From a virus (lineage: Duplodnaviria > Heunggongvirae > Uroviricota > Caudoviricetes), in IMG/VR virus record IMGVR_UViG_3300044630_002233, positions 7,787 through 71,786 of that record: a DNA stretch of 64,000 nucleotides, one strand, 5' to 3'. The notes under the pieces are model-generated. The model ran no database searches and was not told where the DNA came from. It worked only from the letters and a program-made list of their open reading frames with translations. A program made the translations under genes and the position numbers. Shown one piece after another: positions 2,276 to 35,143 of this stretch (its first letter is position 1; each line of letters opens with the position of its first letter).

Positions 2276-2611
2276 TTAGCCAATGAGTTTGTCGATTATT
2301 CCGCTATGAGAAATTATCCAACCAACGACGACAGCGCCACCAACTACTAACCATCTCCACTGTTCTAACACAGTGATCCTACCATTAATTCTTTTGTCCA
2401 TTACATTCATTCTATCAACAATCGCATTGTGTTGAGAATCTGAATCCTTAGACATCTGCCCAAGTTTTTCCATAACCTTCTCGTTGCCTTCAGTAATCCT
2501 ACCGTGCACGACTTTCAGTTCGTCTTTAATTTCCATGACGTCATCCTTGATACCTTCTACCTCAGTTTCAAGTTTGGCGACCTTTATATCTAATTGCGCA
2601 GACATATCCAT
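2276..2611 (-). CDS. hypothetical tail-anchored membrane protein (coiled coil plus C-terminal TM)
   Basis: C-terminal hydrophobic helix WRWLVVGGAVVVGWIISHSGII; the N-terminal part is charged and heptad-like. Confidence 0.45.
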   Translation of the reverse strand: MDMSAQLDIKVAKLETEVEGIKDDVMEIKDELKVVHGRITEGNEKVMEKLGQMSKDSDSQHNAIVDRMNVMDKRINGRITVLEQWRWLVVGGAVVVGWIISHSGIIDKLIG

Positions 2612-2618
2612 ACATTCC

Positions 2619-3209
2619 TTATGGCTTGTTATACAGTTTTTCTTGTTCTTTGACCCAGTCTTGTAAAGATCTTAACTGTTCTCTTACTTCGTTGCAGGTT
2701 GTGTAGTTTCCTGCGACTGTTTTTCCAACGGTAGAGAGTTCAACTCCGCTGGACTTTTCATTAAACTCTCTGGGGGTGTTGGGAATTTCATTCTTAACGG
2801 CACTGTTGTGGAGCACGACGAAACCATTAGGCACATCACACTTAGCATCAGCGTCTTTGGTAATATACTCTGGAACTTTTTCAACAATAACATCACCCTT
2901 CTCCTTGATAACTTTTGTTCGTTCAATATAAACTTTTTCTACCTTAGTAGTTATTTCACCTGATGCTTTTTCTAGTCTAGCAATTTCTTGTTTTTGTTTT
3001 TCTACTGCTTCTAAAAATTCACGTTGAGTCCAGATACCACCAGAAATAAAAATACCACCAGCAGTTAATATCACGCCAATAAGTTTAGGGATAAAACTTG
3101 GCACCAAAGGATGCTTAACAAATGCATACACTCCTATACCAAGAACGATTAGTCCTAAAGCTACTGCTTGAAAAATCCATGTTGGTAAAAAATTTAATAA
3201 CCAAATCAT
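2619..3209 (-). CDS. hypothetical membrane protein (two N-terminal TM helices plus coiled coil)
   Basis: N-terminal hydrophobic segments followed by a charged coiled-coil region. Could be spanin- or holin-like, but this is not provable from sequence. Confidence 0.45.
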   Translation of the reverse strand: MIWLLNFLPTWIFQAVALGLIVLGIGVYAFVKHPLVPSFIPKLIGVILTAGGIFISGGIWTQREFLEAVEKQKQEIARLEKASGEITTKVEKVYIERTKVIKEKGDVIVEKVPEYITKDADAKCDVPNGFVVLHNSAVKNEIPNTPREFNEKSSGVELSTVGKTVAGNYTTCNEVREQLRSLQDWVKEQEKLYNKP

Positions 3210-4934: not shown

Positions 4935-4942
4935 TATTTATA
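4935..4942 (-). promoter_or_regulatory. T4-type late promoter motif TATAAATA
   Basis: Minus strand reads TATAAATA immediately after the upstream stop codon and about 65 nt before the ATG at 4868. Confidence 0.45.
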
Positions 4943-7903: not shown

Positions 7904-8350
7904 TTATTGTTCTCCGCTAGATTTTAATGTTGATGTCAACATCCAGTTATGTTTTTTATGAGCATCGATTCTACCTGCTAGATAATCCAGCAACCCTTGT
8001 TCATTTGCTGCTTCAGCTAATCTGAATGCTTGCATTAGTGAAGATAAAACTGATTGGTTTACTTGAACCAAATCAGCAATCATACCTTGAGCACCAGTAG
8101 CTGATGTATCCATCACCGTTCTATATTTATCAAACTCAATAAGTGTATGTGGAGCAACAGCACCCAATGCACGAATCTCTTCAGCTGTTACATCAATGCT
8201 ACCATAAACCTCTTCGTATATTTTTCCAAAGAAGTCATGTAACATTGGAAACAAAATTCCTTCTACATTCCAGTGGTAGCCTTGCGCCTTTAGATACATC
8301 ATAAAAGAATCTGCCAACACCACTTTCATTTGTTCTTGTAGTTCATTCAT
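7904..8350 (-). CDS. dps: Dps/ferritin-like DNA-protection protein
   Basis: YHWNVEG ... LHDFFGKIYEE matches the Dps ferroxidase-centre signature (HWNxxG ... H/D-E); the size, 148 aa, is typical. Confidence 0.65.
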   Translation of the reverse strand: MNELQEQMKVVLADSFMMYLKAQGYHWNVEGILFPMLHDFFGKIYEEVYGSIDVTAEEIRALGAVAPHTLIEFDKYRTVMDTSATGAQGMIADLVQVNQSVLSSLMQAFRLAEAANEQGLLDYLAGRIDAHKKHNWMLTSTLKSSGEQ

Positions 8351-8351
8351 T

Positions 8352-8633
8352 TTAACAGTCCCATGCTTTTCTAGACCAGTAATTTGCGCTAGTCTTATCG
8401 GTTAAATTTCCCTGACCAGAAGATCTTGCACAATAAGATTTCTTGCGGTTAGGATTATTCTTCTTAATACTTAAAGTTTTATCCCCGAAGTTTACTTTTT
8501 GCGCTTTACCGTCGCCATCTGGATCAACATATACCTTCGACTTCTTAACATCACCAGCCATTGGTTTGTTAAGTGGTACAGTCTTACCTTGATAGGTAGC
8601 TTCGTTTAGTAGGAACTCTTTAAATGTTATCAT
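8352..8633 (-). CDS. hypothetical protein (93 aa) with a CTS-like N-terminus
   Basis: MITFKEFLLNE start; contains VYVDPDGDGKAQKVNFGD. Confidence 0.4.
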   Translation of the reverse strand: MITFKEFLLNEATYQGKTVPLNKPMAGDVKKSKVYVDPDGDGKAQKVNFGDKTLSIKKNNPNRKKSYCARSSGQGNLTDKTSANYWSRKAWDC

Positions 8634-11404
8634 TTTGTGTACTTACTATGAGATAGTCTTGCTTTTTCGATCTGACGAACACGTGGAGCCAATTTCATCG
8701 CAATTCTATTTAACACTGGTTTCATCTTAGCGATGCGTTGCTCTAGACGTTCTTTCTCAGCAACTGATAGAGAAGCCAATGGTTTCTTAGCAATACGTTG
8801 CTTGATTGCTTTAATAGCAAGTCTACGTGCACGAGTGTTAATTACAGATTGTGGAGAAGATCTCTTTAAAGCAACTTTCGCTTTTGCCATACGTTTAGAT
8901 TTAGATCTAGCGAAACGTGTCTTTGCTTTAATGCGTTCTAGTCTTGAAAGAACTTCATTCAACGCTTCTTCTTTTAGGCTGTCTTCTAGTTCTTCACCTG
9001 TTTCATCATCAACAATAGCCAACTCTTCATCATCATATCCGTCAAGAATATCTTCCCAATCGTTGTGTTGGTTAACAATGTCATCAATCTCTTTATCGCT
9101 TAAACTAAATTCTTCAACTTCTTCTGAGAAACGATCATTACCTACAGATCTTTTTTCTCCTGGACCATCAGATCCAATCTTAATTAAACGAGAAGGATGT
9201 TTCTTTCCATCTTTACCCATTTTCTCATCAGCTGCTACAACATATCCCTCTTCAACTTCTTCTTTGCGATACTTAGAATATTCTTTTTCTAAATCTAGTT
9301 TACGTTGCTTAACGTGCTCTTGATCCACATCTTTGTTCATTGACAATTGATGTAGTGTTTTACTTTTCTCTTTGTAATCACCGTGTGGGTCTTTTGCGTT
9401 TAAAGCTGTTTCGCTTAAATCAAATTCTTCTTTTACGTTATGCTTGATATTGAAACTGTTGTCTCTGCGAACAGTTCCAAGATGCTTAGCACCTAATTTG
9501 TTTAGAGAGTTGCGACCACTAGCATTCATTGTGTGGTTTACATCATAGCTACCAGATTTATGTTTGTAGATTTCAATACCATCATCTGGATCTCTATGAG
9601 TTTTAACTTTATCGCTCGCATACTTCATTGCAGATTTTAAATCTTTGAAGTTTTCTTTTATGTTTTCTTTTTCTTGCTCATGCTTTTTAGATAGTGTTTC
9701 TTTTTCTCTAGCATGTTTTGCAGCAAGAGCAGCCTTAGCAACTTCACGAGCAAGTTTCTTAGGATCTCCGTTGGCTTCGCCTAAAGAATAGCGAACTTTT
9801 TGTTTTCTTAGGTTATCGTTTTCTGGTTGATTGTGTAAGGTTTCACCAACCTTAGTCATGTTTCTTTCTAACCAATCTGGGATACCATCATTGTCTGTAT
9901 CCACTTCAGTCATTCTACCTTCAGTATCATAGCTGAGTAACTTATTATAGTATGCTTCTTTTAATTTTTGTGGCATTAAGTTTGTATCAAACTCAATACC
10001 GATATCAGTTGCCATCTTCAACATACGTCTTAGGATTTCATATGACTCAGCATTCAATGCTTTGTTCTTAATCTTACGCAATCCCATGTTAACAATCTGC
10101 TCTGGGTTTGTTGTAGCTTCAACATTATCAACACCAAGTGTAGTAGCAATAATTCTAGCTGCTTTAATTTGATCAGCAGAACTTGGTTTTAATGTTTTGT
10201 TTGTTAGGTTTTCAATTACAGTACCAGTTACTTTAACAGAATCATTCATCTCTTCTTTACCTGCTTCTTTATAGTCAGACGCAAGTTTTTCGATATGGTC
10301 GCCATGCGTTTTTAAATAGTTGTCATGGTGTTCTGCTTGACCCATCTTAGCAAGATGCTCTCTTGCTCTATCCATATGAACTTTGACATTGTTGACTACT
10401 TCGGGGGATGCTTGTCTTGTTGCAATCGCAGCCTTAAGATGTCCAAGGTATTCGTCAACTTCTTTCATTGCGTGTAGAATATCTACAGCACTTGCGTCGC
10501 CTGAGTGGATACTAGTGTTGAACGCATCAACAACTGAAGTATCTAAGTCGAAGTGTTTAGTTGTGTAGCCTTGCCAGCTAACTTGATTGTGATCTTCTGG
10601 ATTTTCAAAATCTTCTTGAAGATACACGTCTTTAATCCAACGAGTAAATTTCACGTCTGTTCCTTCTTCTGTTAATAGTAGATGATTTGAACCACGTTTA
10701 ACGACAACGCATTGTTTATTCTCACAAACAACAACGTCACCAACATTAAAGATCTCACCACGGAAATATTTTTCACGTAGGTCATCAACTGTTATATTTA
10801 ATGATTCTTTAACTGGCGCAAGGTCATACGCTTTGCGAATCTCATTCATCAATCTGCGTGCATCCAAGTCGGTAAGAGTTTTAGGAACACCCTTTTTAAA
10901 CTCAGAGAACTTTCCAGCCTTTGCTGCTTCACGCATCTTTGTACCTGACATACCTGTAGCGTTATCTGAATCTGGATCCCTTTCACCAGCAGAAACTACA
11001 GTAACGGTATCAAAGTTGAATTCAGTTCCGTTATACTTTTCTAAAATCTTTTTGTATTCTGCGATACGGTCGCTACCTGCAACCATAACAATATTCTTGT
11101 AACGCTTGTTTAATTCTTTGGCAGCTTCGATAAATGTTCTTACTTGTTCGTTGGCTGCTTTAAAATTAGCTCCAGGAAACATACGCTGGAGGTAATATAC
11201 TTTACGGGAAACTGGGAGTGGGTTTTGCTTCTTGTCTTCAGTCTTAGAAGCATAAATGACATGGTCTGCTCCCTGAGCAGACGCAACTTTTTGAACAGCT
11301 TTTACTAAGAGTTCGTGTCCTGTGGTTGGTGGCTGGAAGCGACCAAACGCAAATACAACCTTCTTGGAAGGCAACTCTTTAATTAGTTGTCTATATTTCT
11401 TCAT
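8630..11404 (-). CDS. NadM-type nucleotidyltransferase (NMNAT superfamily) fused to an ~750-aa charged C-terminal region
   Basis: N-terminal FGRFQPPTTGHELL (archaeal NMNAT GRFQPFHKGH motif) and MSGTKMRE (equivalent to ISST/SGTEIR). The C-terminal ~750 aa are Lys/Glu-rich and low-complexity. The N-terminus MKKYRQLIKELP is like the T4 internal-protein targeting motif. Confidence 0.6.
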   Translation of the reverse strand: MKKYRQLIKELPSKKVVFAFGRFQPPTTGHELLVKAVQKVASAQGADHVIYASKTEDKKQNPLPVSRKVYYLQRMFPGANFKAANEQVRTFIEAAKELNKRYKNIVMVAGSDRIAEYKKILEKYNGTEFNFDTVTVVSAGERDPDSDNATGMSGTKMREAAKAGKFSEFKKGVPKTLTDLDARRLMNEIRKAYDLAPVKESLNITVDDLREKYFRGEIFNVGDVVVCENKQCVVVKRGSNHLLLTEEGTDVKFTRWIKDVYLQEDFENPEDHNQVSWQGYTTKHFDLDTSVVDAFNTSIHSGDASAVDILHAMKEVDEYLGHLKAAIATRQASPEVVNNVKVHMDRAREHLAKMGQAEHHDNYLKTHGDHIEKLASDYKEAGKEEMNDSVKVTGTVIENLTNKTLKPSSADQIKAARIIATTLGVDNVEATTNPEQIVNMGLRKIKNKALNAESYEILRRMLKMATDIGIEFDTNLMPQKLKEAYYNKLLSYDTEGRMTEVDTDNDGIPDWLERNMTKVGETLHNQPENDNLRKQKVRYSLGEANGDPKKLAREVAKAALAAKHAREKETLSKKHEQEKENIKENFKDLKSAMKYASDKVKTHRDPDDGIEIYKHKSGSYDVNHTMNASGRNSLNKLGAKHLGTVRRDNSFNIKHNVKEEFDLSETALNAKDPHGDYKEKSKTLHQLSMNKDVDQEHVKQRKLDLEKEYSKYRKEEVEEGYVVAADEKMGKDGKKHPSRLIKIGSDGPGEKRSVGNDRFSEEVEEFSLSDKEIDDIVNQHNDWEDILDGYDDEELAIVDDETGEELEDSLKEEALNEVLSRLERIKAKTRFARSKSKRMAKAKVALKRSSPQSVINTRARRLAIKAIKQRIAKKPLASLSVAEKERLEQRIAKMKPVLNRIAMKLAPRVRQIEKARLSHSKYTK

Positions 11405-11456: not shown

Positions 11457-12695
11457 TTAATATATCTCTCGCCATTGCATTCCAACACCAACAGTAGTAC
11501 TTTGAGTACCTAGATTTGTAGCTACTAGAACATAAATCTCTGAGTCTGTAGAATCATAGTTCTGAACAATATAGTTTTTCTTGGCTGATGAAGGTAGATC
11601 TGGTCCTGGAGCACCACCAGCTTTAAGAGCACCTTGCGTAGAAGCACCGACCCATCCTGCATCGATACAATCACCCTCAGTATATGCCGTAGCATCCACA
11701 CAATACTCAACTCCACTATCATCATCGACTGGAGTCCATGTTGTTTCGGTTAAATTAGATGTGTTAGGTAACTTAATCAATTTCCAACCGATATTCTCAC
11801 CACTACTAAAAACAGACAAATTACCCATACGAACAATCATTCTATTTTTATAGGTTCTAAAGGCATTCTTTAAACGAATCGCCATGATTGGTAGAGTCTG
11901 CCCAGAAGTAAGAGTTCTTGGAATGTTTGCTTGCGCCCAATCGGTTCCAGCTTCAACATACCCACCCTCTGACATAACAGTAGAACAGATTTGATCAAAG
12001 TAACCACCAGCAGTTGTTCCCACATTAACAAGTTCGCAACGGATAGGTAGGTTTGGATTACTCATATAAACTGTTGGCAAATTATTGCTGTTGTTAAATG
12101 CATGAGCGATTACGTATTGCCCATCATGAACAAAACCACAACGAACTCTACCAACACCAAGCCATTGAAAGTCAATCCAAAATAATTGCGTTTTGGTTAT
12201 ATCTAAATTGAAAGCACTAGATCCAGTACCATCACACTTATCTCCATTCCATTGAGACTGAGGTATTCTTCTTTCTGTTGGCGCACCAGTAACATAAGTT
12301 CTAACAACAATGTTTAGTGTACCATCACCTGTTTGTTCAAAATAGATACCATCATTATCATCAAAATACCCTGTTCGTTTAGTTACGTTTGGGACTGCAG
12401 TATAAAAGTTAAAACTAGAAAGGATAACCTGACTTTTTCCAGGCATGTAATGATGATAGAATTTGCTTTGATGAACAAGTCTTGAGTTTGGATTGTTTGA
12501 AGTTGTTAATCTTGCGCATGCTTGATTGGGTTGAAACGATAGTGTTGCACCATTAACAGCATAATCAATAAAGTTTGGATCTAAACCAAAGATGTGTTTA
12601 TAATCACCAAGCGTATATGGTTCACTGGTGCGTCCTCTTCCAAACGCATCAACATTTTGACTCTCCTGAAATAAATACGTCATACTATTCTCCAA
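11457..12695 (-). CDS. hypothetical protein (412 aa), possibly virion-associated beta-rich protein
   Basis: Long ORF with no recognisable catalytic motif. Confidence 0.4.
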   Translation of the reverse strand: MENSMTYLFQESQNVDAFGRGRTSEPYTLGDYKHIFGLDPNFIDYAVNGATLSFQPNQACARLTTSNNPNSRLVHQSKFYHHYMPGKSQVILSSFNFYTAVPNVTKRTGYFDDNDGIYFEQTGDGTLNIVVRTYVTGAPTERRIPQSQWNGDKCDGTGSSAFNLDITKTQLFWIDFQWLGVGRVRCGFVHDGQYVIAHAFNNSNNLPTVYMSNPNLPIRCELVNVGTTAGGYFDQICSTVMSEGGYVEAGTDWAQANIPRTLTSGQTLPIMAIRLKNAFRTYKNRMIVRMGNLSVFSSGENIGWKLIKLPNTSNLTETTWTPVDDDSGVEYCVDATAYTEGDCIDAGWVGASTQGALKAGGAPGPDLPSSAKKNYIVQNYDSTDSEIYVLVATNLGTQSTTVGVGMQWREIY

Positions 12696-13363
12696 CCATC
12701 TCTATAAATCATCTGTATACCACCGTTGTCTATTTTTAAGATAAATCCGTTTGGATCATTATCAACATTTCCGTGAACAATTATTGGAAATTTTGAACAT
12801 CTTCCAGATTCATCTTTGATTATAAGGTATCTACCATTCTTAACAATAGAAGGTAAAGTTAATGTTACTGTGCCAGCATAATTTACGCCAATATAATAAT
12901 CTTTTCTACCAACTGTATATGAAGGTGTTGTTACTAGCGTTGTTGGGTGATCTAGGTTTACTACGTCACCAGCGCCACCACCTGGACCAGCGTTTTGTAT
13001 TTTAGCGATCCACTGCTCAAGAAATTTTATTTTAGCATCAACAGTTTTAAATTGTTTTGTTAATGGATCTACTGGAGCTGCAATACCAGCTGGTGTGCTT
13101 AGATACTTATCAATATTTGGTATCTGTAGTTCTGGTGGTGTAACACCGACTGGAGTTGGTATTGGTGTTTCTTCTAGTAGAGTTGGATTTTCTTCTACAA
13201 GTTTTTCTTTATGTTTTTGTAGAGAAGCCAACTCCTCAAACAATACACTCAAATCAGATTGAATGTTTTCTTTTACTTCCTTGATAATCTTATGCTCTGG
13301 ACTTTTCTCTTTAGCCTCACGCATAAGACTGACTAAATCATTTAGACTGCTCATCGCTGCCAA
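12680..13363 (-). CDS. hypothetical protein (227 aa), N-terminal coiled coil plus C-terminal beta domain
   Basis: ORF overlaps its neighbours by a few nt on the same strand. Confidence 0.4.
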   Translation of the reverse strand: MAAMSSLNDLVSLMREAKEKSPEHKIIKEVKENIQSDLSVLFEELASLQKHKEKLVEENPTLLEETPIPTPVGVTPPELQIPNIDKYLSTPAGIAAPVDPLTKQFKTVDAKIKFLEQWIAKIQNAGPGGGAGDVVNLDHPTTLVTTPSYTVGRKDYYIGVNYAGTVTLTLPSIVKNGRYLIIKDESGRCSKFPIIVHGNVDNDPNGFILKIDNGGIQMIYRDGWRIV

Positions 13364-14580
13364 CCTTTGATAATTTCTGGCGAGAAGTTTGCCTTACTAA
13401 ACTCTAAGCGATCAACGATCTTTACTGCGCCACCACGCAAGTGGTCAATAGCAACAAACCCTTCTACGCCAGTCGTCTTGAATCCATTAGCAGTCTTTAA
13501 GAAAGTCTTCATAGATCCAGCTTTATTCATCTTGGCGATAATCAATTTCTTGGCTTCAGTCAAAACATTAGCCAACTCAAATACGCTCTCGATAGACTTC
13601 CTGTCATTGTTTGCAAAGAAAGCCATTACAGCTTTGCGCTTTTCGTTGACACCAGCCTTACCTTTTTCTGTCTTCAACTTATCCATGTCTTTCTGATATT
13701 TCCCATGGATATAATCAAACAACTCATCAACGTGTTTCTTTGGATTAGAGATAGTTTCTCCAGCACGCACCTTGGAGTTATTGAAAGTCTTGACCAATGT
13801 AAGCAACTCGGTATTGTTAGAAATGCTGTTTAGAGTATTAGCATTAATAGACTTGAACAACACACCTGCTTTTGATAGTAGGGAAGTTACTTCAGTAGTT
13901 TCTGATTCCGTAAAGGTAGCAGTTCCAGAAACATCTTTGTAGTTGGCGTCATCCATCCAGATTGAACCAACCTTGTTAAATTTGTCAACAATACCTTTAC
14001 CGAAAGTAGCCTTCATTGTTTCAAACGAACTACCTTCATATGTAGTATGCCAAACAACACCAATCTTAGCAGCACGTAGTTTAGTGGCAAGAGGACTATC
14101 ATATGGAACAGCGTATACAATAGTGTTAGGATGGAAGGTTACATACTTCTTACCATCAATCGTTTCTGTTTTCAAATCGTTAGTGAACATCAAGTCGCCT
14201 TGATAAACACCAGACTTGATGCCCAACTTCTTAAACTCTGCCAATGCAACTTTCAGTTTAGCTGCCAAGTCGCCTTCAGTATCCGCATCGATTTCTTTTG
14301 GTGTCTTATAAACCTTTGGCTCTTTATTGAAGACACCTTTCTTTGCTACAAAGAATTTGCCATCACGTGGATCAATACCAGCAAATACAGCTGGCGCACC
14401 GTCCCACTTAACAGTAGTAGTAATTTTTGACTTGCTATTACCAGCCAACATATCACGCAAGTCTTGTAGGAAGTTAATTGCTTTACGTGTACCCAGAACA
14501 CCTTCGTTGAAGATTAAATCCTCAACGTGTTCCATATGGGTATTCTTTTCTTCTCTAATATACTCTTTTAAGTTTAACAT
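13351..14580 (-). CDS. rnlA: RNA ligase 1 (T4 RnlA-like) nucleotidyltransferase
   Basis: Motif I TVKWDGAP (KxDG), and motifs IV/V EGFVAIDHLRGGAVKIVD aligning with T4 RnlA EGYVAVMKDGSHFKIK. CTS-like start MLNLKEYIREE. Confidence 0.55.
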   Translation of the reverse strand: MLNLKEYIREEKNTHMEHVEDLIFNEGVLGTRKAINFLQDLRDMLAGNSKSKITTTVKWDGAPAVFAGIDPRDGKFFVAKKGVFNKEPKVYKTPKEIDADTEGDLAAKLKVALAEFKKLGIKSGVYQGDLMFTNDLKTETIDGKKYVTFHPNTIVYAVPYDSPLATKLRAAKIGVVWHTTYEGSSFETMKATFGKGIVDKFNKVGSIWMDDANYKDVSGTATFTESETTEVTSLLSKAGVLFKSINANTLNSISNNTELLTLVKTFNNSKVRAGETISNPKKHVDELFDYIHGKYQKDMDKLKTEKGKAGVNEKRKAVMAFFANNDRKSIESVFELANVLTEAKKLIIAKMNKAGSMKTFLKTANGFKTTGVEGFVAIDHLRGGAVKIVDRLEFSKANFSPEIIKGWQR

Positions 14581-15194
14581 TATTTCACCAACTTTATTTG
14601 TCCATCAGGTAAAGCGAAGTAGGCATTAAACCTAATCATCGGAAACTCTCTACCTAATTTTAGGAATTCTTTTAGGTTGCTCATGCTGTCATCAAACAGA
14701 GCAACTCTTGAAAATTGTTTAGTCTTTAAATACTCACGAATAATAATCGCCTTCTTAACAGCAGGGATATTATTGTCTTCCATATTACCAGCACGTTCAA
14801 CACGAACCTTGTCAATATCGAAACCATGCTTACGGAAGGTTGCTAGAAATTTGTCACGATTATCAAAGTTCGCTCTAGCAGTAACAATGATAACTTTGTT
14901 CAAAGGGTTTCTGTCTGTAGCGGAAACCAACTTGCTTGCTGTATTTAGCATCTTAGCGATTGGCTTCGATTCTTTATAAAACTTGGCAGCATCTTTGAAT
15001 TCAGAAAAATCGAAGGACTCACCAGCCCCAAGTTTGTAATTATTAAACTCTTGGTTGGTCAGCTTCTTTAGGACTGCGCCATCTTTTTTAACAGCGATCT
15101 GGGCAGTGGTATGGAAGAGGGTGTCGTCAATATCGAATATGGATAGACGACCCAGCGTTTCTTCTTCTTTTAGTAGATATTCTTTAAACCTCAT
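14580..15194 (-). CDS. HAD-family phosphatase (polynucleotide 3'-phosphatase-like)
   Basis: HAD motif I FDIDDTLFH, motif II IIVTAR, and motif IV ALFDDS. No P-loop kinase domain is present. Confidence 0.55.
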   Translation of the reverse strand: MRFKEYLLKEEETLGRLSIFDIDDTLFHTTAQIAVKKDGAVLKKLTNQEFNNYKLGAGESFDFSEFKDAAKFYKESKPIAKMLNTASKLVSATDRNPLNKVIIVTARANFDNRDKFLATFRKHGFDIDKVRVERAGNMEDNNIPAVKKAIIIREYLKTKQFSRVALFDDSMSNLKEFLKLGREFPMIRFNAYFALPDGQIKLVK

Positions 15195-15200
15195 ACCTTT

Positions 15201-15229
15201 ATTATACCTGAATTCTGAATTATTGTAAA
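15201..15229 (-). promoter_or_regulatory. Early sigma70-like promoter (TTTACA-N17-TATAAT)
   Basis: Minus strand reads TTTACAATAATTCAGAATTCAGGTATAAT. The -10 ends 6 nt before the ATG at 15194, so the mRNA may be leaderless. Confidence 0.6.
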
Positions 15230-15235
15230 GTATTC

Positions 15236-15252
15236 CCCTACGGTTTGTAGGG
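15236..15252 (-). terminator. Stem-loop CCCTAC-N5-GTAGGG immediately upstream of the early promoter (PeSL-like cassette)
   Basis: Inverted repeat read from the sequence. The same hairpin-plus-promoter arrangement recurs at 35.5 kb and 38.05 kb. Confidence 0.5.
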
Positions 15253-15263
15253 TTATTATTTTA

Positions 15264-16688
15264 TTAACTAACCTTGTAGTGGACAGAGGAAAAGGCATTC
15301 ATTTTCTTCGCTGCCAGATACATTTTTTTGTATATCGCTGCAGGGTTTGACGCTGTTTCTAATGCGTAAATATAATACAAAAGAACCACTGCTCGTTTGA
15401 CTTCATATTCTGACATCACATCAGTCATACCAGAAACCTTAACCATTTTGAATTGATCCTTAGCTACGTAGGCAGCAAATTTCTCATAGAACTTTTGATT
15501 ACCCATAGCCTTAATTTGAACAGCAACAGTTCCTGCTACTTTCGATACTTTCTTCATATCATCAGTTACAGTAATCATTCCTGGGAATTGAGTATTTAAC
15601 ATGTCTCTAGAAATAGCGCCATCCCAAACTTTGGCTGTCTCTGGTTGCCCTTCGCCATATGTATTAAGTTCATTAGATTTACCACGTGGTCTAAATCTAA
15701 ATCTGTAATTTACATCATCTTTAAACACTTTAAATTGGGGAAGTATATCGAAATAAGAATTAGAAACTTTATACTCGAACTTTTTCCATGGTTTGGTATA
15801 ATTGATGTTCTTAATGTATTTTGCATCAGTCTCAATCTTAGAAATTGTAGCCTTTGGACCAGCAACCTTTTTCAGAGAGATACCAATAATTTCTTTAGAA
15901 ATAAATTTATCTTCAACAAATTTGTTTAGGTCATCGATACCAGCACTCTCAGCGAGAAGTTTTTTATAAAGCGCATCAACAGTTGTTCCTAACTTTGATA
16001 TGCTTGTTTTCTTAACTGCCCATATATCTGATGGGTTCCAGTTATCTTTACTATCAGGAAGAACTTTTGGATCAGTTATTTGATTTAGAAAAGCAGGTTT
16101 CTTCGGATTACTGTCACGATAGAATTCATAACTTTTCATGCTAGACTTTGGTATAACAGTTAGAATAGCATTGATAGTTTTCTCAAAGGACTCATGCCAT
16201 GTTTTATCAAAATCAAACTTAACTGTCTTATTGATTAAATCTTTGGTTGGCATTTTGCCATTGTTAGCGATATACTCCAGACAGAATCTAGTTCCATCTT
16301 CTTGTTGAGCAGTTGTAGGTGTTTTAGAAGAAAGCGCATTGCCTTCCTGATCTATAACATTCTTGTAACCACCACCAGATTTATAGATGTTTACTTTATC
16401 TGCGCCAACTGTAATTAAAAACTTATTGTCTTTTTGATCAGTTACCTTAGCAGTTTTGATTGTGCTGATCTCAGAGATAGCAGCGATAAAACTTTTGGGG
16501 TCAACAATTTTTAACATTGGAACCCCACCTGTTATTTTCCCATCATCTGTTTCGAGAAAGGTAACAGCAGCAAAATCTTTTAATTTAGGAATGATGACTT
16601 TTAATGCTGGCTTCTTATCCACCAGCATATTAAATCCTGCCTTACCCTGAAAATATAACTTTGCCATGCGCCCTCTTATAACAGTCAA
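15264..16688 (-). CDS. hypothetical protein (474 aa)
   Basis: Long ORF with no clear motif. A possible PD-(D/E)xK-like stretch, PSDIW...EIIGISLKK, is weak. Confidence 0.45.
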   Translation of the reverse strand: MTVIRGRMAKLYFQGKAGFNMLVDKKPALKVIIPKLKDFAAVTFLETDDGKITGGVPMLKIVDPKSFIAAISEISTIKTAKVTDQKDNKFLITVGADKVNIYKSGGGYKNVIDQEGNALSSKTPTTAQQEDGTRFCLEYIANNGKMPTKDLINKTVKFDFDKTWHESFEKTINAILTVIPKSSMKSYEFYRDSNPKKPAFLNQITDPKVLPDSKDNWNPSDIWAVKKTSISKLGTTVDALYKKLLAESAGIDDLNKFVEDKFISKEIIGISLKKVAGPKATISKIETDAKYIKNINYTKPWKKFEYKVSNSYFDILPQFKVFKDDVNYRFRFRPRGKSNELNTYGEGQPETAKVWDGAISRDMLNTQFPGMITVTDDMKKVSKVAGTVAVQIKAMGNQKFYEKFAAYVAKDQFKMVKVSGMTDVMSEYEVKRAVVLLYYIYALETASNPAAIYKKMYLAAKKMNAFSSVHYKVS

Positions 16689-16694
16689 TATAAA

Positions 16695-17414
16695 CTATTT
16701 AGGTCGTTTACATGCACGAAGTTTTCGTTCGTACTTTCGATCCCACTTAGAAACCTGCTGAATTATCTTTGGTATGGCTTCGTTGTTACGGAAGTCATAG
16801 TCAAATGTTCTGAGGATGTAGTGGAGGGTTTTAGAATCACGTTTCTTTTTACAACGTGTCAGCAGTTCGCTGATAGTGATGTTGGGTCGTTTTATTTTAA
16901 AGTCGAGATAAACGCAATGAGCATATGCTTGAATCTCATCAAACTCAGAAAGGTATTTTCTCTCTTCGGTTTTCTTTGATGTCTTGGCTTTCTTGTAAGG
17001 AACAACATACCCAGACCATTCATCGCCACGTCTATCATATTGCATGAAGTGTATCAACTCATGCATCTGTGTCTGGATCAATCTATACTTGAAAGATTCC
17101 CATGCTTCGTCAGTAAACTGGAATTTGTTATAGTCTTTCTTGCCGTGGATTATCAGAGTACATTGTCTAAACTCCGCATCATATTCACCACCGACAGCCA
17201 TGTAGTTCTCATATACTTTGGCTTTTGAAAGTTCTGGTCGCCACTCTATTTTGGTGCGCCATTTTTTGAAGTAATTTGTTAGACCTCTTTTATCGTTGCG
17301 ATACTTGTCTAGGTCTACCCACACTTTTGCAGGAATGAGTTTGGCTCTAAATGGACGCTCATAAAAATTGAGCATCTCCATCCAATCGAAGTTGAGTTCT
17401 TTGAGGAAGCGCAT
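16695..17414 (-). CDS. putative zinc metallopeptidase (HExxH)
   Basis: Single HELIH motif (TQMHELIHFMQYD); the protein is basic. Confidence 0.4.
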   Translation of the reverse strand: MRFLKELNFDWMEMLNFYERPFRAKLIPAKVWVDLDKYRNDKRGLTNYFKKWRTKIEWRPELSKAKVYENYMAVGGEYDAEFRQCTLIIHGKKDYNKFQFTDEAWESFKYRLIQTQMHELIHFMQYDRRGDEWSGYVVPYKKAKTSKKTEERKYLSEFDEIQAYAHCVYLDFKIKRPNITISELLTRCKKKRDSKTLHYILRTFDYDFRNNEAIPKIIQQVSKWDRKYERKLRACKRPK

Positions 17415-17477
17415 GGTAAAATTATACTCCCCGTGGCAAAGTTAGAGTCCACCACATATTTAGGGTTTAGCATAATT

Positions 17478-17930
17478 TTACAATGTAAAAAGGACTGGAG
17501 CCTCCATACCCTTCTCCCAGAAATACAACTCTACTTCTGGTGGTAGTTTCTTCCTCATTCCTCTAAGAACCTTTTTGTTGTCCTCATAGTGTCGTTGAAC
17601 ACCAAGTTCCAAAACTTTGGAAGTCTTGTAGTTTACAACATTTTCTACAGTTCGTGTATCCGTAAGTAAGTGGAAACTTAGGACACGTCCAGTATAGTTT
17701 TTATCCAGCCATTCTTTTGTGATATGGTGGATTTTTGATTCAGCCTTCCTAGCTGAGATGGCATGGAAGGTTTCCTCTACTGGTTCAATAAGACGTTCCG
17801 CAGACGCATACCATTCATAAAGAAAATCTTTACGTGCACGACGTTGCTCGCCATTCATCCTACCCCACTTTGTTTCGTTAGCAGGTGGCTGAGCAGCGAG
17901 AACACCGTCAATATCATAAGATACTATCAT
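17478..17930 (-). CDS. 5'(3')-deoxyribonucleotidase-like HAD nucleotidase
   Basis: MIVSYDIDGVL (DxDGVL, the motif of the NT5C family). The likely start is the ATG at 17930, which overlaps the upstream stop (ATGA); the track ORF begins 19 codons earlier. Confidence 0.5.
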   Translation of the reverse strand: MIVSYDIDGVLAAQPPANETKWGRMNGEQRRARKDFLYEWYASAERLIEPVEETFHAISARKAESKIHHITKEWLDKNYTGRVLSFHLLTDTRTVENVVNYKTSKVLELGVQRHYEDNKKVLRGMRKKLPPEVELYFWEKGMEAPVLFTL

Positions 17931-18934
17931 AGGAAACTTAGATCTATCTTGTCTGTATTTAAAATATACTGTTTCTGCGCCAGCCAAATCTTCTCACGTT
18001 TCTCAACTGAGAGAGAAGCAAACTTCTCGATCGCTTCCGCATTATCCGCAGGAAAACACCAAACCAATCCGTTGTTTCCTTGTGGTGCGCAGACAGGAAT
18101 GCCAGCATAGACAGCATGGTAAGCACGACCAGTACGCCAGCCTGAACGCTTATGCTTGTCATCATAAACAGCAAGACAACCATGATACTTCTGATAGAAA
18201 GCACGTCTATCTCTTTGCTGTGGATTCTCAACGATATTCAACCCAACGTAGTCTGACCATTCAGTTTCTTTACCTGCTACTTCAAGATATGATGACTTTG
18301 TATATTCTTTGAAGTGTTTAGTGCGACCATTTGGGCGACCGATATAAACTACCTTCTCGATTGACCCAGCATGAAAGTTTGCGAAGTCCATACCTGAAGC
18401 CATCGGTAAGTCAATAGTAGTTGTACCTTCTGGGCATTTTAGAATGGTAGCAACTTCAGATGGTACTGCAGCATTAGCAGCGATAGTCCAACGTGACCAA
18501 TCTTCATCAGGTAACAACTCCCAAAGGAATGGTAGGTCTGGGTCATCGTTAAGGAACACAATTTTACCCTTGTGCGCTTTGATCATCTCAACAGTTTTAT
18601 CCCAATACTTCTGATAGAACTGTAGGTTAGTACCACCAAACTCAAGCACAAGTGTATCACACTCTTGGTAAATATCAAAAGATTCAAAGCCATCGTTGGC
18701 TGTTGCTTCAGTTGGTTCTGATAAAGGGATGATACGCATACCTGCGCCAAGTACGTTCTTAAAAAATGCTACACGTTTCTCTACCCATGCACCACGAATA
18801 CCATTCTCTTGGTTAGTTAAACCAATCTTACCTGATACCCTGCGGTAGCCAATCTTCTTTCCTGTGTTACTAGAGTTGGCTGAGTAGAACCACTCTAGTA
18901 ACTTTTCTTCACCTAGAAACTCATGTAATGACAT
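17927..18934 (-). CDS. T4 beta-glucosyltransferase-like DNA glycosyltransferase (GT-B fold)
   Basis: KIVFLNDDPDLPF is comparable to T4 BGT KIYYLFTDIRLPF. VVYIGRPNGRTKHFKEY is comparable to BGT VIYGGSFRSGQRESKM. The length, 335 aa, is close to BGT at 351 aa. The similarity is recalled from memory, not aligned. Confidence 0.4.
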   Translation of the reverse strand: MSLHEFLGEEKLLEWFYSANSSNTGKKIGYRRVSGKIGLTNQENGIRGAWVEKRVAFFKNVLGAGMRIIPLSEPTEATANDGFESFDIYQECDTLVLEFGGTNLQFYQKYWDKTVEMIKAHKGKIVFLNDDPDLPFLWELLPDEDWSRWTIAANAAVPSEVATILKCPEGTTTIDLPMASGMDFANFHAGSIEKVVYIGRPNGRTKHFKEYTKSSYLEVAGKETEWSDYVGLNIVENPQQRDRRAFYQKYHGCLAVYDDKHKRSGWRTGRAYHAVYAGIPVCAPQGNNGLVWCFPADNAEAIEKFASLSVEKREKIWLAQKQYILNTDKIDLSFL

Positions 18935-18940
18935 ATTATG

Positions 18941-20254
18941 TTATCCTAAAAAGTCTGCGAGAGAACCAGCACTTGCCTTTGGATGATAAGTGTGAAGCAT
19001 ATGTTCTCCACCTTTCTCACGCAAGAAGTCATACCATTCTTCCTCTTCCCACATTCCTGGAGAAACACCATTCCACAATTTCTTATACAAGCGATGCTCA
19101 GTATTCAAGCGACGTTGTTCAACGTATTCAAAACGAAAATCTTCATATTCTTTGCTACCAAGTTCTAGCATTTTTTCACGGAAGTATACAACCAAACTTA
19201 CACGCTCTGAACCTTCTTCACAAACAATAGGTGTATTGCCATGGATGATTTCGTGGTTATTAACCAACAACAAATCACCTGGACGCACGTTAACAGCCAT
19301 ACGGATCTCAGGGAAAATCAAATACCCACCTGAGTAACGACCATCGTTAGATAATGTCAACAGATTTGAGAGACCAGAATCCAAATCACCAGCATCACGA
19401 TGAGCAGCAGTGCGGAATGTTTTGTTTACAGTAACTGTTGTAAATGGTGTTTCTGGGATAAGGAATCTAGAATCAATTTTCTTAGCTGCTGCCATTTGAT
19501 TGCCATATCTCCAAGGCAACAACTCAGCAAAACCTTTAGCCAAGTGCTGTAAGAATGGGTATGCCATTTTAAACTTATCAAAGTTGTCTCTTGTATAAGT
19601 TGTAGCACGACCATAAGGGATACGTGGGTAGCGATCAAACCAACCAGCGATACCAGAATCAACTGGATTGCCATAAGATGTTTCGCTAATCATCTTCATG
19701 GTTTCTTCACATGACTTAGCACGTTCTTCTGGCGTCATAGTTTTGATGGAATCAACCCACTCATCAAAATTAAATTTACCACGGAAACGTGAGATAACCC
19801 AAACATTGTTTTTGCCAGAGCCAAGTGCCTTTAAACGTGACTCTGCTGTTGGATATTTTGAGCGAACATTTTCAATTGGGTCACCAGAAAATAGAGATGC
19901 CTTGCGACCATCAAGAAGCGCATTAATCATTTCTTCCTGATAGTTAGTAACCCACTCACGTCCTTCACCATTAACTTGTGTTCCAGCTTTAATACCTGAA
20001 GCCAAGCCACGATTCTCTGTTCGTTGAGCAGCTTCTCTTAGTCCATGATATGCTGCGTCTTGTTCTTCTTTAGTAAAGAAGTTCTTACGGAATTTGAAAG
20101 CGATCTTCTGTTCGTTTGGCGCTTCACCATAACCAACTGGCAAATAGCAATCAGTATCTTCCTCGATTAGAATATCATAATTTGATTCATCAAGAAACAT
20201 ACCCATAAGATTTTCACAATCATGTTTAGTTTCTGCTACAATAACTCGTGTCAT
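18941..20254 (-). CDS. 2OG-Fe(II) dioxygenase, TET/JBP-like (nucleobase hydroxylase candidate)
   Basis: AAHRDAGDL...LSNLLTL is comparable to TET2 AHAHRDLHNM...STLVCTL. The distal His is in HEIIHGNTP, followed by RVSLVVYF (the RxS 2-oxoglutarate contact). It sits next to a glucosyltransferase-like gene. Confidence 0.4.
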   Translation of the reverse strand: MTRVIVAETKHDCENLMGMFLDESNYDILIEEDTDCYLPVGYGEAPNEQKIAFKFRKNFFTKEEQDAAYHGLREAAQRTENRGLASGIKAGTQVNGEGREWVTNYQEEMINALLDGRKASLFSGDPIENVRSKYPTAESRLKALGSGKNNVWVISRFRGKFNFDEWVDSIKTMTPEERAKSCEETMKMISETSYGNPVDSGIAGWFDRYPRIPYGRATTYTRDNFDKFKMAYPFLQHLAKGFAELLPWRYGNQMAAAKKIDSRFLIPETPFTTVTVNKTFRTAAHRDAGDLDSGLSNLLTLSNDGRYSGGYLIFPEIRMAVNVRPGDLLLVNNHEIIHGNTPIVCEEGSERVSLVVYFREKMLELGSKEYEDFRFEYVEQRRLNTEHRLYKKLWNGVSPGMWEEEEWYDFLREKGGEHMLHTYHPKASAGSLADFLG

Positions 20255-25991: not shown

Positions 25992-26546
25992 TTATACCCC
26001 ATAAAGTAACATCATCGCATCAAGCGCACAGTCATGCGTAGGATGATGTTTAATCACATTGTGTCTTCCGAATGTAGGATGGTTCACATCCGCATAACCA
26101 TTCTTAGACGTAGAACATAGAATATCAACTCCAGTTCTAACGTCTCGCCAATCATTATAAGGCAAAAGACGTTCTGTGTCAAGTTTTAAGCAAAGACTAT
26201 CAATAACCATTTGGTCTAAAGAACCACGTGCCCAAATTTTAGCTGGACCATATTTCTTGATGTAGTCTTTTAATTTGTTGATTGCATCGATCGGATGTAA
26301 GTCATCTGGCGCTGGATCGAAACTCAGCTTTCGAATGTGAGGATGAATTTTACTCCACCATTCGAGTGTGTCTTTAGAAACTGTTCTTCCATACTTTTCG
26401 ATTTGAACCTTACTATCAAACTTTACAAACAAAGATTTGTTTAGTAGGGTATCATAATCGTCGCCTTCTTCGAAGTAGAGAATGGCAGCAGATAGAACAA
26501 CAGAAGTGGACTCAATATCAAGAGTCTCAATGTCAAACATATACAT
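25992..26546 (-). CDS. DEDD-family 3'-5' exonuclease (DexA-like)
   Basis: N-terminal MFDIETLDIE (Exo I DxE motif); the gene abuts gene 43. Confidence 0.45.
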   Translation of the reverse strand: MYMFDIETLDIESTSVVLSAAILYFEEGDDYDTLLNKSLFVKFDSKVQIEKYGRTVSKDTLEWWSKIHPHIRKLSFDPAPDDLHPIDAINKLKDYIKKYGPAKIWARGSLDQMVIDSLCLKLDTERLLPYNDWRDVRTGVDILCSTSKNGYADVNHPTFGRHNVIKHHPTHDCALDAMMLLYGV

Positions 26547-31595: not shown

Positions 31596-32390
31596 TCATT
31601 TCAGCATCAGAGCATTAAAGTTTGCAGGAACTACAATAGTTTGCACCTTACCATTCTTAATGCCTTCTGAAATATTCAATGCAGCCTGAGCATTCATAAA
31701 CGCAATAGAACTAGCAGAGTTGTTTGCTAGAGCAGCCATACGTTCAGCTTCTTTCTTAGCAGTCTGCACTTCTACTTCCTTCTGTTTGTATTCGTTCTTT
31801 GCACGAACAAGAGCATTGGCAGATTCTACAACAGAGTCAGCAGGAACTACATTACGAATCAAAACCTGAGAGATGGTAATAGAACCATCCAACTTTTCTT
31901 CAGCCAGATTCTTTTGAATCTCTTCACGAATAATGGTCTCCATAGCCTCACGATTGTCTGCCATATCAAGTGCTTCATACTTACGTGCAGCTTTGTAAAT
32001 AGCATTACGTGCATTTTGAACAATGTAGTTATACATTACATAAGTGTCGCCTTTCGCTTCAGCATGGAAAGATTTATTCTTTGTAGAATAAAGTTCAGCG
32101 ACTTGCTGAGGGTTGATGTTATAAACAACCACAGCATCTACGTCTTTCATAGTAGAGTTGTCTTTAGCAACAGGAGTCATATTCTCCAGCACCACGTTCA
32201 CATCCTTAACTGGGAAAGTCAGAACATCACCAATCAAGACTTGGTTGAAAGATCCAGGAAGCAGTTCTCCAGGTTTGACTTGTTTATCAAAGCCAACACG
32301 AACACCAACTTCACCTGTCTCAATACGAGTACAACCAGTTGCCAAAGCAACAGCAGCAACCAAAGCAGAGATTTTAAATACGCTTTTCAT
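31596..32390 (-). CDS. SPFH/band-7 (prohibitin/stomatin-like) lipoprotein
   Basis: Lipoprotein signal MKSVFKISALVAAVALATGC and an SPFH-like body with a coiled-coil C-terminus. Start reassigned to the ATG at 32390, preceded by AAAGGAAA. Confidence 0.6.
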   Translation of the reverse strand: MKSVFKISALVAAVALATGCTRIETGEVGVRVGFDKQVKPGELLPGSFNQVLIGDVLTFPVKDVNVVLENMTPVAKDNSTMKDVDAVVVYNINPQQVAELYSTKNKSFHAEAKGDTYVMYNYIVQNARNAIYKAARKYEALDMADNREAMETIIREEIQKNLAEEKLDGSITISQVLIRNVVPADSVVESANALVRAKNEYKQKEVEVQTAKKEAERMAALANNSASSIAFMNAQAALNISEGIKNGKVQTIVVPANFNALMLK

Positions 32391-32402
32391 AATCAATTTC
32401 CT

Positions 32403-33942: not shown

Positions 33943-33971
33943 ATTATACCTGAACATTGATTAAATGTCAA
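33943..33971 (-). promoter_or_regulatory. Early sigma70-like promoter (TTGACA-N17-TATAAT)
   Basis: Minus strand reads TTGACATTTAATCAATGTTCAGGTATAAT; the -35 overlaps the cobS stop codon. Confidence 0.6.
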
Positions 33972-35143
33972 GCACTTGCAACTTCTTCAGAAGTTGTTTC
34001 TTGCAAGGGTTGTTCAACTTGCAACTCGCCAGAAGAAACCTTCTCGAACAAGTCATTAAATGCGATTCGAGTGGAGTCATCAAAACGATTGGTACAAAGC
34101 TCGATTGCCTTTTTCTGATTCTTAAAGATAGAGAAGGCACGAACAATATGAATCAAACGACGTGTAGTGATTGTTTCATCCACGCCACCAGCGTCAAACG
34201 TGCGACGGATAGCGTCTGCCCACTTGACCATGTTATCTGCAAAGTCTTCATCAATAGCATTGTAAGACTTCATCAGATTCATAATGATACGCTTTTCAAC
34301 CTTAGAATCTGGATATTCTTGGTTGAACGTAACCGCAAAACGCTCGAGGAACGCTTCGTTGAGTACGTTAGTACCGATGTAACGACCATCGTCACTACCC
34401 TTACCCTTTGTGTTAGCAGTAGCGAACACATTGAATCCAGGTGCGGGAACGATCATTTCGTTCTTAAGTTTGAAGTAATAGGGTTTGCCCTCGAGAATGG
34501 GTTGCAAACACAACAGGGTGTTAGCAGAGCCAGCGTCAATCTCATCAAGTAGCAGTACGGATCCTGTACGCATAGCGATGACGACTGGTCCTTCAACGAT
34601 CTCTACGTTGCCATTCACAAGGGTCTTAGTACCGATGAGTTGGTCTTCGTCAGTCATAGTGTTAAGGTTAACACGAATCAGAGCACGACGTTGCTTTGCG
34701 CAAATCTGCTCAATGGTAGTAGACTTACCGTTGCCAGTTGGACCCGAAATATAAGCAGGGTAAAATTGCTTTGACGAAATAATTTGTTCGAGGTCTTTGT
34801 GATTACCGAATGCGACATAGTTAGCATCCAAACGTGGGATGAGCGATTCAGTATCCGTAAAATCAACCACAACAGACTCCATTTTCTTTGCTGATGGTTC
34901 AGCGTATTCAGTTACAGGTTTGCGAGCCATAGGTTGTGTTACGGAACCTCCAGGGATCGCATAAAGTCCACGACCCAGTTGAGTTTGCATCAACCATAGT
35001 GGATGGAAAGGGTTACCCATCGATTCACGAACAGTCAACAGTTGACTGCGAGTAACAGTACCTGAAGTCTGAACATCGGGAAACATCTCAAAGAGTTTCT
35101 GCTCAAACTCAGCTTTTTGCGCTTCAGTAATTTTAGCCATCAT
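33968..35143 (-). CDS. cobS: CobS-like AAA+ ATPase (MoxR family; cobaltochelatase subunit homolog)
   Basis: Walker A GPTGNGKST, Walker B LLDEID, and sensor ATANTKGKG...GRYIGT. It is paired with a downstream CobT/VWA gene as in marine myophages. Confidence 0.7.
   Translation of the reverse strand: MMAKITEAQKAEFEQKLFEMFPDVQTSGTVTRSQLLTVRESMGNPFHPLWLMQTQLGRGLYAIPGGSVTQPMARKPVTEYAEPSAKKMESVVVDFTDTESLIPRLDANYVAFGNHKDLEQIISSKQFYPAYISGPTGNGKSTTIEQICAKQRRALIRVNLNTMTDEDQLIGTKTLVNGNVEIVEGPVVIAMRTGSVLLLDEIDAGSANTLLCLQPILEGKPYYFKLKNEMIVPAPGFNVFATANTKGKGSDDGRYIGTNVLNEAFLERFAVTFNQEYPDSKVEKRIIMNLMKSYNAIDEDFADNMVKWADAIRRTFDAGGVDETITTRRLIHIVRAFSIFKNQKKAIELCTNRFDDSTRIAFNDLFEKVSSGELQVEQPLQETTSEEVASA

Follow-up and report, generated by a model that had tools for sequence, protein, structure and literature searches.

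In this study, we analysed a 64,000-nucleotide stretch of viral DNA (hereafter the window; positions 7,787 to 71,786 of IMG/VR record IMGVR_UViG_3300044630_002233), focusing on two adjoining genes that encode a HAD phosphatase and a DUF6267 protein. The window is a stretch of a T4-type myophage genome, with co-directional genes on the minus strand. In transcription order it begins with gp20, gp23, the sheath, the terminase and other structural genes and continues with gp47/gp46, gp45, gp44, the gp43 DNA polymerase, UvsX and the gp41 helicase. After gp41 comes a variable stretch and then the HAD and DUF6267 genes, and on the 3' side of DUF6267 lie a "cytidyltransferase" gene, a ferritin-like gene and a gp61-like primase gene. 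A first-pass annotation, made from the letters alone, had read the pair as an Rnl1-type RNA ligase beside a HAD phosphatase, together forming a partial tRNA-repair module. Both open reading frames (ORFs) were confirmed, at 13351-14580(-) with 409 amino acids and at 14580-15194(-) with 204 amino acids. The locus comprises the following features.

8630..11404, minus strand: 924-amino-acid protein with a HIGH-type nucleotidyltransferase N-terminus (PF01467; PHROG 3041/395)
13351..14580, minus strand: DUF6267 protein, 409 amino acids, a divergent covalent nucleotidyltransferase (predicted ligase fold)
14580..15194, minus strand: HAD phosphatase, 204 amino acids, with four HAD motifs; an orphan at the sequence level
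15201..15229, minus strand: promoter-like site TTTACA-17-TATAAT, matching the sigma-70 consensus at 11 of 12 positions, 6 bases 5' of the HAD ATG
15236..15252, no strand assigned: GC-rich 7-bp hairpin CCCTAC-loop-GTAGGG, between the 474-amino-acid gene and the promoter-like site
15264..16688, minus strand: 474-amino-acid ORF upstream of HAD, of the orphan family PHROG 1462 / cyanophage "T4-like GC 419"

The 409-amino-acid protein has DUF6267 as its sole Pfam match (E = 1.2e-108). Its PHROG group (PHROG 455) is labelled "unknown function", the DUF6267 proteins among the GenBank matches listed are named only "hypothetical" or "DUF6267 domain-containing", and a full-text literature search for DUF6267 gave no paper. 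The closest cultured relatives come from Methylophilales phage Melnitz (53% identity) and Stenotrophomonas phage DLP6 (50%); HTVC008M, a Pelagibacter phage, follows at 39%, and several hundred cyanomyophages at about 38% or less. The ligase motifs named in the first-pass annotation, K58-W-D-G and E373-G-F-V-A...A385-V-K387-I-V-D, are present, and their catalytic positions are invariant in 36 DUF6267 homologs from four clades (37-98% identity). The invariant elements of this alignment are an N-terminal H15-x-E-H-x-E-D21 (an acidic/histidine helix), motif I K58-W-D60-G61, a motif III-like Q127-G-D129, a motif IIIa-like F149-x-P-N-T, K-x-G-x-x-x-H178-T-x-Y-x-G, motif IV E373-G374-x-V-A and motif V A385-x-K387-x-V-D-R. 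Candidate motifs III, IIIa, IV and V stand in the right order.

The AlphaFold2 (AF2) model of the DUF6267 protein has a nucleotidyltransferase domain fold, in which a helical domain of about 125 residues (about 225-351) is inserted between motifs IIIa and IV; the chain ends about 20 residues past motif V. The best structural matches to the model are NgrRnl (Rnl5; score 8.8), Trypanosoma brucei REL1 (8.0) and T4 Rnl2 (7.8 and 7.3). Lower matches include a Sulfolobus DNA ligase (7.0), Trl1 (6.8) and T4 Rnl1 (6.7, rank 10), and the lowest given are Chlorella virus ligase (5.9) and Vaccinia capping enzyme (5.4). The predicted fold and the motifs make DUF6267 very probably a ligase-superfamily enzyme, in agreement with the first-pass annotation. 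Within the covalent nucleotidyltransferase (polynucleotide ligase) superfamily, it appears to represent a far-diverged branch that has gone unannotated. On balance, it is probably a strand-joining ligase.

The closest enzymes by structure are nick-sealing RNA ligases of the Rnl5/Rnl2 families (NgrRnl, 5cot; REL1, 1xdn; T4 Rnl2, 1s68/2hvq), with which DUF6267 shares 11-12% identity and whose Pfam family RNA_ligase does not match it. The accessory helical domain is predicted to lie inside the nucleotidyltransferase domain of DUF6267, whereas it is appended in those ligases. Unlike them, DUF6267 also has the invariant H-x-E-H-x-E-D N-terminal helix, an aspartate in motif III and a replication-module setting. 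The label "Rnl1-type" had to be given up: the protein does not belong to RNA_lig_T4_1, its nearest structural neighbour is not Rnl1, and its helical region precedes motifs IV and V instead of forming an all-helical, tRNA-binding domain appended at the C-terminus. Comparison with T4 RnlA by hhalign gave a probability of 2% over 21 columns, confined to the motif IV-V patch, and a tblastn search of the window with T4 RnlA found nothing better than E = 3.7. DUF6267 does not classify as a standard ATP-dependent DNA ligase either, so that this part of the outcome named in the first-pass annotation as refuting its reading did not arise. Compared with the T4 gp30 type it lacks the OB domain, motif VI and sequence similarity, it has no Pfam DNA_ligase match, and profile comparisons with gp30 (hhalign probability 0.2%) and with Rnl2 detected no similarity.

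DUF6267 was found in 452 of 50,697 phage records, 438 of them from cyanophages (355 from Synechococcus phages); among the T4-like phages that infect marine cyanobacteria, almost every one has it. The order gp43 - UvsX - gp41 - ... - DUF6267 - (small ORF) - "cytidyltransferase" - ... - gp61 recurs in Melnitz, DLP6, HTVC008M, S-PM2 and P-HM2. We also surveyed the neighbourhoods of 80 IMG/VR DUF6267 loci (52-72% identity) with purpose-built hidden Markov models (HMMs). Upstream of DUF6267, gp41 was present in 33 of the 40 loci with enough sequence, and in 40 of 49 one of the next three genes downstream encoded a HIGH-type cytidyltransferase; relatives of T4 Pnk, RnlA, Rnl2 or gp30 were detected by HMM in none of the 80. 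In Kyanoviridae-like T4-type phages, which have no gp30 ligase, DUF6267 belongs to the core of the DNA replication/recombination module, and the HIGH-type nucleotidyltransferase is its constant partner.

The HIGH-type nucleotidyltransferase domain forms the first approximately 200 residues of the 924-amino-acid protein and bears the signatures GRFQPPTTGH ... MSGTKMR. PF01467 matches all six orthologs examined (best E = 4e-7); beyond it, faint similarities to NadR-type NMNAT, TmcAL and citrate-lyase-ligase are the only leads on its substrate, and a literature search for the cyanophage "cytitidyltransferase" found nothing. In Synechococcus phage S-PM2, the gene annotated "cytidyltransferase" (S-PM2p142; NC_006820, 7599-8771) is an in-frame fusion of a DUF6267 C-terminus to the HIGH nucleotidyltransferase. 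In this old record a frameshift, missing from a newer S-PM2 record, sets the N-terminal half of DUF6267 apart as an ORF of its own. The PHROG 455 profile is composite because the two proteins are fused in S-PM2. In the window, two genes at 11457-13363(-), encoding 227 and 412 amino acids, separate DUF6267 from its partner. The 412-amino-acid product is a virion structural protein (PHROG 1645, E = 4e-115), and the N-terminus of the 227-amino-acid protein matches a tail-fibre-like 520-amino-acid protein of a related locus (L011). The replication module is interrupted here by structural genes. As a separate observation, about 700 C-terminal residues of the 924-amino-acid protein extend beyond the enzyme domain, and a 69-residue segment of them is 81% identical to part of a separate 563-amino-acid gene product of another related locus (L008), which suggests domain shuffling.

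The 204-amino-acid protein carries all four HAD motifs listed in the first-pass annotation, and these are invariant (D21-x-D23-x-T25, T105-A-R, K148 and D168-D169). With motifs I-IV on a Rossmann-like core, it is a member of the HAD superfamily. Pfam assigned it to no family at E <= 0.01, NCBIfam gave a HAD-IA match below threshold and nothing more, neither its sequence nor its profile matched the PDB, and the phage collection contained a single, unannotated relative. In an hhalign comparison with T4 Pnk, motif I alone was aligned (probability 15%), and the one positive sequence link to Pnk is with PHROG 415 "polynucleotide kinase" (E = 4.6e-9); by sequence, the protein was not accepted as a Pnk/PNKP-type (PNK3P / HAD-IIIA) enzyme. 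Its AF2 model (predicted local distance difference test score, pLDDT, 80.8) matches plant VSP / class-B acid phosphatase (12.1), the phosphatase module of the capsule polymerase Bcs3 (11.8), the T4 Pnk 3'-phosphatase (10.9 and 10.5) and Pnkp1 of the Pnkp1/Rnl/Hen1 repair complex (10.7), with generic small-molecule HADs at about 9. The predicted fold is nearest to those of HADs whose substrates are bulky or polymer-bound phosphates. The proposed likeness to the 3'-phosphatase half of T4 Pnk is thus plausible for the predicted fold, to which T4 Pnk is among the closest by a small margin, and falls for sequence membership. By its putative role, the protein may be likened to yeast Tpp1 and plant ZDP, kinase-less PNKP-family DNA 3'-phosphatases. 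Tpp1 and ZDP belong to the HAD enzymes, are kin to the phosphatase domain of Pnk and ready 3'-phosphate DNA ends for repair synthesis and ligation.

The HAD stop codon overlaps the DUF6267 start codon (TAATG). The -10 box of the promoter-like site ends immediately before the six bases that precede the HAD ATG, and the HAD transcript may have almost no leader. In L008, where the proteins are about 70% identical and the flanks have diverged, the hairpin, a perfect TTGACA-17-TATAAT and an ATGA overlap are all kept (L008 7944-7995). As far as these sequence features go, the shared promoter-like site and the stop/start overlap indicate that the two genes are probably coupled. The linkage was followed in 80 IMG/VR HAD loci (57-100% identity; 6-kb flanks), 67 of which have enough downstream sequence. 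DUF6267 is present in 52 of the 67 and is directly the next gene in 32. In six further loci (L051, L052, L064, L067, L068 and L069), a DNA ligase of the gp30 type (E about 1e-63 against T4 gp30) lies 0.5-1.2 kb downstream of HAD on the same strand; these belong to another T4-like lineage rich in small ORFs, with HAD proteins 64-67% identical. A ligase of either kind therefore accompanies HAD in 58 of 67 loci (87%). The dependence is one-sided: HAD is nearly always near a ligase, and DUF6267 usually occurs without HAD. Such a pattern would be expected if an end-healing enzyme had been recruited as an accessory to a core ligase.

Upstream of HAD, the 474-amino-acid ORF belongs to a family whose members lie directly upstream of DUF6267 in cyanomyophages. 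For the genes upstream of DUF6267 in Melnitz, HTVC008M and DLP6, no tie to this family was established. The ORF probably starts at Met8 (16667), giving 467 amino acids, since the alignments of almost every full-length homolog begin at about residue 8. Among 162 representatives, E130, W164, K-D-N-W-N-P-x-D (214-221) and G-I-S-L-K (269-273) are invariant, and the pattern E130 ... P219-x-D221 ... S271-x-K273 suggests a resemblance to PD-(D/E)xK nucleases. The first-pass annotation had raised this protein as a possible unrecognised end-healing enzyme. It has no P-loop or other kinase signature, and even a 40-sequence profile gave no Pfam or PDB match; the proposal was dropped. Between the 474-amino-acid gene and gp41 lies a variable island.

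16695..20254, minus strand: variable island from gp41 to the 474-amino-acid gene, with a Tet/JBP gene and three further ORFs
18941..20254, minus strand: Tet/JBP dioxygenase (Pfam 2e-23)
17927..18934, minus strand: 335-amino-acid ORF of the island
17478..17987, minus strand: 169-amino-acid ORF with a HAD-like motif I, S-Y-D-I-D-G-V-L-A, and no family match
16695..17414, minus strand: 239-amino-acid ORF with an HExxH motif (HELIH)

The L011 homolog of the 239-amino-acid protein has a weak SprT-like match. In related contigs the island also has a C5-DNA methylase, a GT1 glycosyltransferase, a 136-amino-acid CTP-transferase and a PF18751 P-loop kinase; as a whole, it resembles a cluster for DNA base hypermodification.

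The reading that we prefer, with somewhat less than even confidence, is that the pair consists of a divergent polynucleotide ligase and an accessory 3'-end phosphatase, with DNA as a more probable substrate than tRNA. The predicted fold, motifs, gene order and linkage statistics are the results on which it stands; how the ligase works, with which cofactor and on which substrate, and whether it cooperates with the HAD protein, we infer. K58 of K-x-D-G would be charged with a nucleotide, AMP from ATP being the default cofactor assumption. The nucleotide would be passed from K58 to a 5'-phosphate end, and attack by the 3'-OH would seal the break. The helical insertion between motifs IIIa and IV, with the invariant acidic/histidine N-terminal helix, would stand in the place of the OB domain, and DUF6267 would work with the HIGH-type nucleotidyltransferase, to which it is sometimes fused. 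In this clade, the HAD gene seems to have been inserted directly upstream of DUF6267, with its own putative early-type promoter and probable translational coupling. Quite possibly, the HAD phosphatase is the 3'-end healer for DUF6267; it would most likely strip a 3'-phosphate and give the ligase its 3'-OH. The two proteins would form a "heal and seal" pair for 3'-phosphate/5'-phosphate breaks, for which a kinase is not required. DNA ends, such as replication or repair nicks, are favoured over tRNA because the alternative partner of HAD is a gp30-type DNA ligase.

Several observations weigh against this reading. The ligase assignment comes from one AF2 model, whose segment with the motif IV and V strands has a pLDDT of only 52-74, and the top structural matches are RNA ligases (Rnl5, REL1 and Rnl2). 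In motif III of DUF6267 an aspartate replaces the glutamate, and motif V has a single lysine. None of the 36 DUF6267 members matched a Pfam ligase family even at E <= 10, no sequence relatives of the protein were detected in the PDB, and the AF2 model has no OB-like domain, which to our knowledge is present in all characterised DNA ligases. On the HAD side, little separates Pnk-type from other HAD folds in the structural comparison. HAD lies within three genes of DUF6267 in only 8 of 66 IMG/VR DUF6267 loci (12%), and it cannot be called a general DUF6267 partner. The HAD-gp30 linkage comes down to about four distinct contigs, in which the two genes do not directly adjoin. Three HAD loci (L011-L013) have no DUF6267 by HMM and no ligase, and their downstream genes belong to no known family. 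HAD is always at the downstream edge of the variable island, which here holds Tet/JBP, and the Bcs3-type phosphatase likeness of its model would fit a role in DNA hypermodification. DLP6 encodes DUF6267 (AAY80_066) besides gp30, so the two are not simple substitutes for each other.

Some of these points suggest that the HAD phosphatase instead serves the Tet/JBP hypermodification island, for example by dephosphorylating a DNA-attached sugar phosphate or intermediate, and that its adjacency to DUF6267 is an insertion accident at a variable hotspot. Its constant place at the edge of the island, the Tet/JBP and other modification genes in relatives and the ligase-free HAD loci would all be explained in this way. 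However, the promoter-like site of HAD and its translational coupling to DUF6267 are both conserved, and a ligase is present in 87% of the HAD loci, including those of the gp30 lineage. Some loci (gp41-HAD-x-DUF6267) show no recognisable island gene, and Tet/JBP occurs in only 9 of the 80 HAD loci, a count limited by the 6-kb flanks. We regard a service to the island as unlikely.

We give a similarly low probability to the idea that DUF6267 retains lysine-nucleotidyl chemistry without joining strands, and acts with the HIGH-type nucleotidyltransferase in cofactor or nucleotide metabolism, in capping or tagging of nucleic-acid ends or in protein modification. The tightest and sometimes fused partner of DUF6267 is indeed this nucleotidyltransferase, not a nucleic-acid enzyme, and DUF6267 has no OB or other known nick-sensing domain. 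DLP6 keeps gp30 besides DUF6267 (PMC5349666), and in the window genes for virion proteins are interleaved with DUF6267. Against this, the strongest structural matches are nick-sealing ligases, the position of DUF6267 between gp41 and gp61 is conserved among genomes that encode no other ligase, and an end-healing-type HAD pairs with DUF6267 or gp30.

The known system with which the HAD-DUF6267 pair was compared is the tRNA repair pathway of T4 RnlA (gp63) and T4 Pnk (PseT). T4 Pnk had no BLAST match in the window better than E = 1.1. Walker-A motifs in the window are confined to gp41, UvsX, gp44, the CobS-like AAA protein, gp46, the terminase and an unrelated 792-amino-acid ORF; they are absent from HAD and from the 474-, 239-, 169- and 335-amino-acid neighbours, which bears out the earlier remark that no kinase lies nearby. 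A 180-amino-acid P-loop kinase (PF18751) lies three to four genes upstream of HAD in at least 20 of the 80 loci, and the common order in relatives is kinase - 239-amino-acid HExxH protein - about 300 amino acids - about 405 amino acids - HAD - DUF6267 - HIGH-type nucleotidyltransferase. In this phage, the 169-amino-acid HAD-like ORF takes the position of that kinase (compare L011 5423-5962). Comparisons of the kinase gave P-loop similarity of a generic kind, spread over T4 Pnk, adenylate kinases and YorR, which points to no one specificity and for which reason we give the kinase little weight; a literature search for Ploopntkinase3 found nothing. The breaks made by anticodon nucleases end in a 2',3'-cyclic phosphate and a 5'-OH, and sealing these needs a kinase. 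A kinase-less phosphatase and ligase pair is chemically sensible for 3'-phosphate/5'-phosphate breaks, not for the 5'-OH ends of anticodon nucleases.

A partial tRNA-repair module (RNA ligase and 3'-phosphatase) directed against host anticodon nucleases, with the 5'-kinase coming from the host or an unrecognised phage protein, would accord with the OB-less RNA ligases as nearest structural relatives of DUF6267, with the closeness of the HAD fold to the T4 Pnk and Pnkp1 RNA-repair phosphatases and with the PF18751 kinase, whose Walker-A region aligns with the T4 Pnk N-terminus, but it is quite improbable: hundreds of phages that have no Pnk carry DUF6267 as a constant member of the DNA-replication module, the same HAD adjoins a classical gp30-type DNA ligase in another lineage, which points to DNA rather than RNA ends, the window offers no kinase for 5'-OH ends, the PF18751 kinase of relatives sits in the Tet/JBP island, and the Rnl1 similarity is confined to motifs IV-V.

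Other features of the window lie outside the HAD-DUF6267 locus. An Rv2179c-like 3'-5' exoribonuclease gene at 25992-26546(-) directly follows the DNA polymerase gene, and auxiliary genes encode a ferritin-like protein (7904-8350(-)), an SPFH/Band-7 protein (31596-32396(-)) and a CobS/MoxR-like AAA ATPase (33968-35143(-)). Five T4-type late-promoter boxes (TATAAATA) occur at 4935, 28026, 45069, 47542 and 63647, all on the minus (coding) strand. Their total is not above chance and their placement is non-random: those examined sit just 5' of genes, such as the Hsp20-like and scaffold genes. The window scan found none near the HAD and DUF6267 genes.

The preferred reading of DUF6267 as a divergent polynucleotide ligase bears on the ligase content of the phages that carry it. 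Queries with T4 gp30 and a marine gp30-like ligase each matched approximately 2,600-3,200 phage records, and Synechococcus phages were not among the organisms in the gp30 top-ten lists (lowest count 63) or in that for T4 Pnk (lowest count 57). Homologues of g30 and rnh were not found in cyanomyoviruses, and it was proposed that distant homologues are unidentified or that host enzymes are used (PMC2984593). In another study, gp30 was counted among the "non-cyanophage core" proteins, and DLP6 was reported to encode gp30 (AAY80_192) (PMC5349666). DLP6 has both genes, and therefore the two are not strictly alternative; a strict one-for-one replacement of gp30 by DUF6267 was rejected on this ground.

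DUF6267 appears, from its predicted structure, to be a structurally novel ligase-fold enzyme within the replication module of phages thought to be ligase-free. It is possible, if doubtful, that it is the missing ligase of cyanomyophages and their relatives (Kyanoviridae, HTVC008M and Melnitz), an OB-less enzyme that would seal replication and repair nicks as a unit with the HIGH-type nucleotidyltransferase, with end-healing genes (HAD and, in some phages, a P-loop kinase) recruited alongside. One idea is that the nucleotidyltransferase might supply or regenerate the nucleotide cofactor of DUF6267, for example by NMN + ATP -> NAD+. The HAD result would add a case of a phage "phosphatase plus ligase" pairing without a kinase. 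If active, DUF6267 would represent a new ligase architecture, with an inserted domain, no OB domain and an obligate HIGH-type nucleotidyltransferase partner, and possibly a new enzyme for biotechnology. For the ocean-abundant cyanomyophages, which have a T4 replisome without a recognisable DNA ligase (PMC2984593), DUF6267 is a concrete candidate.

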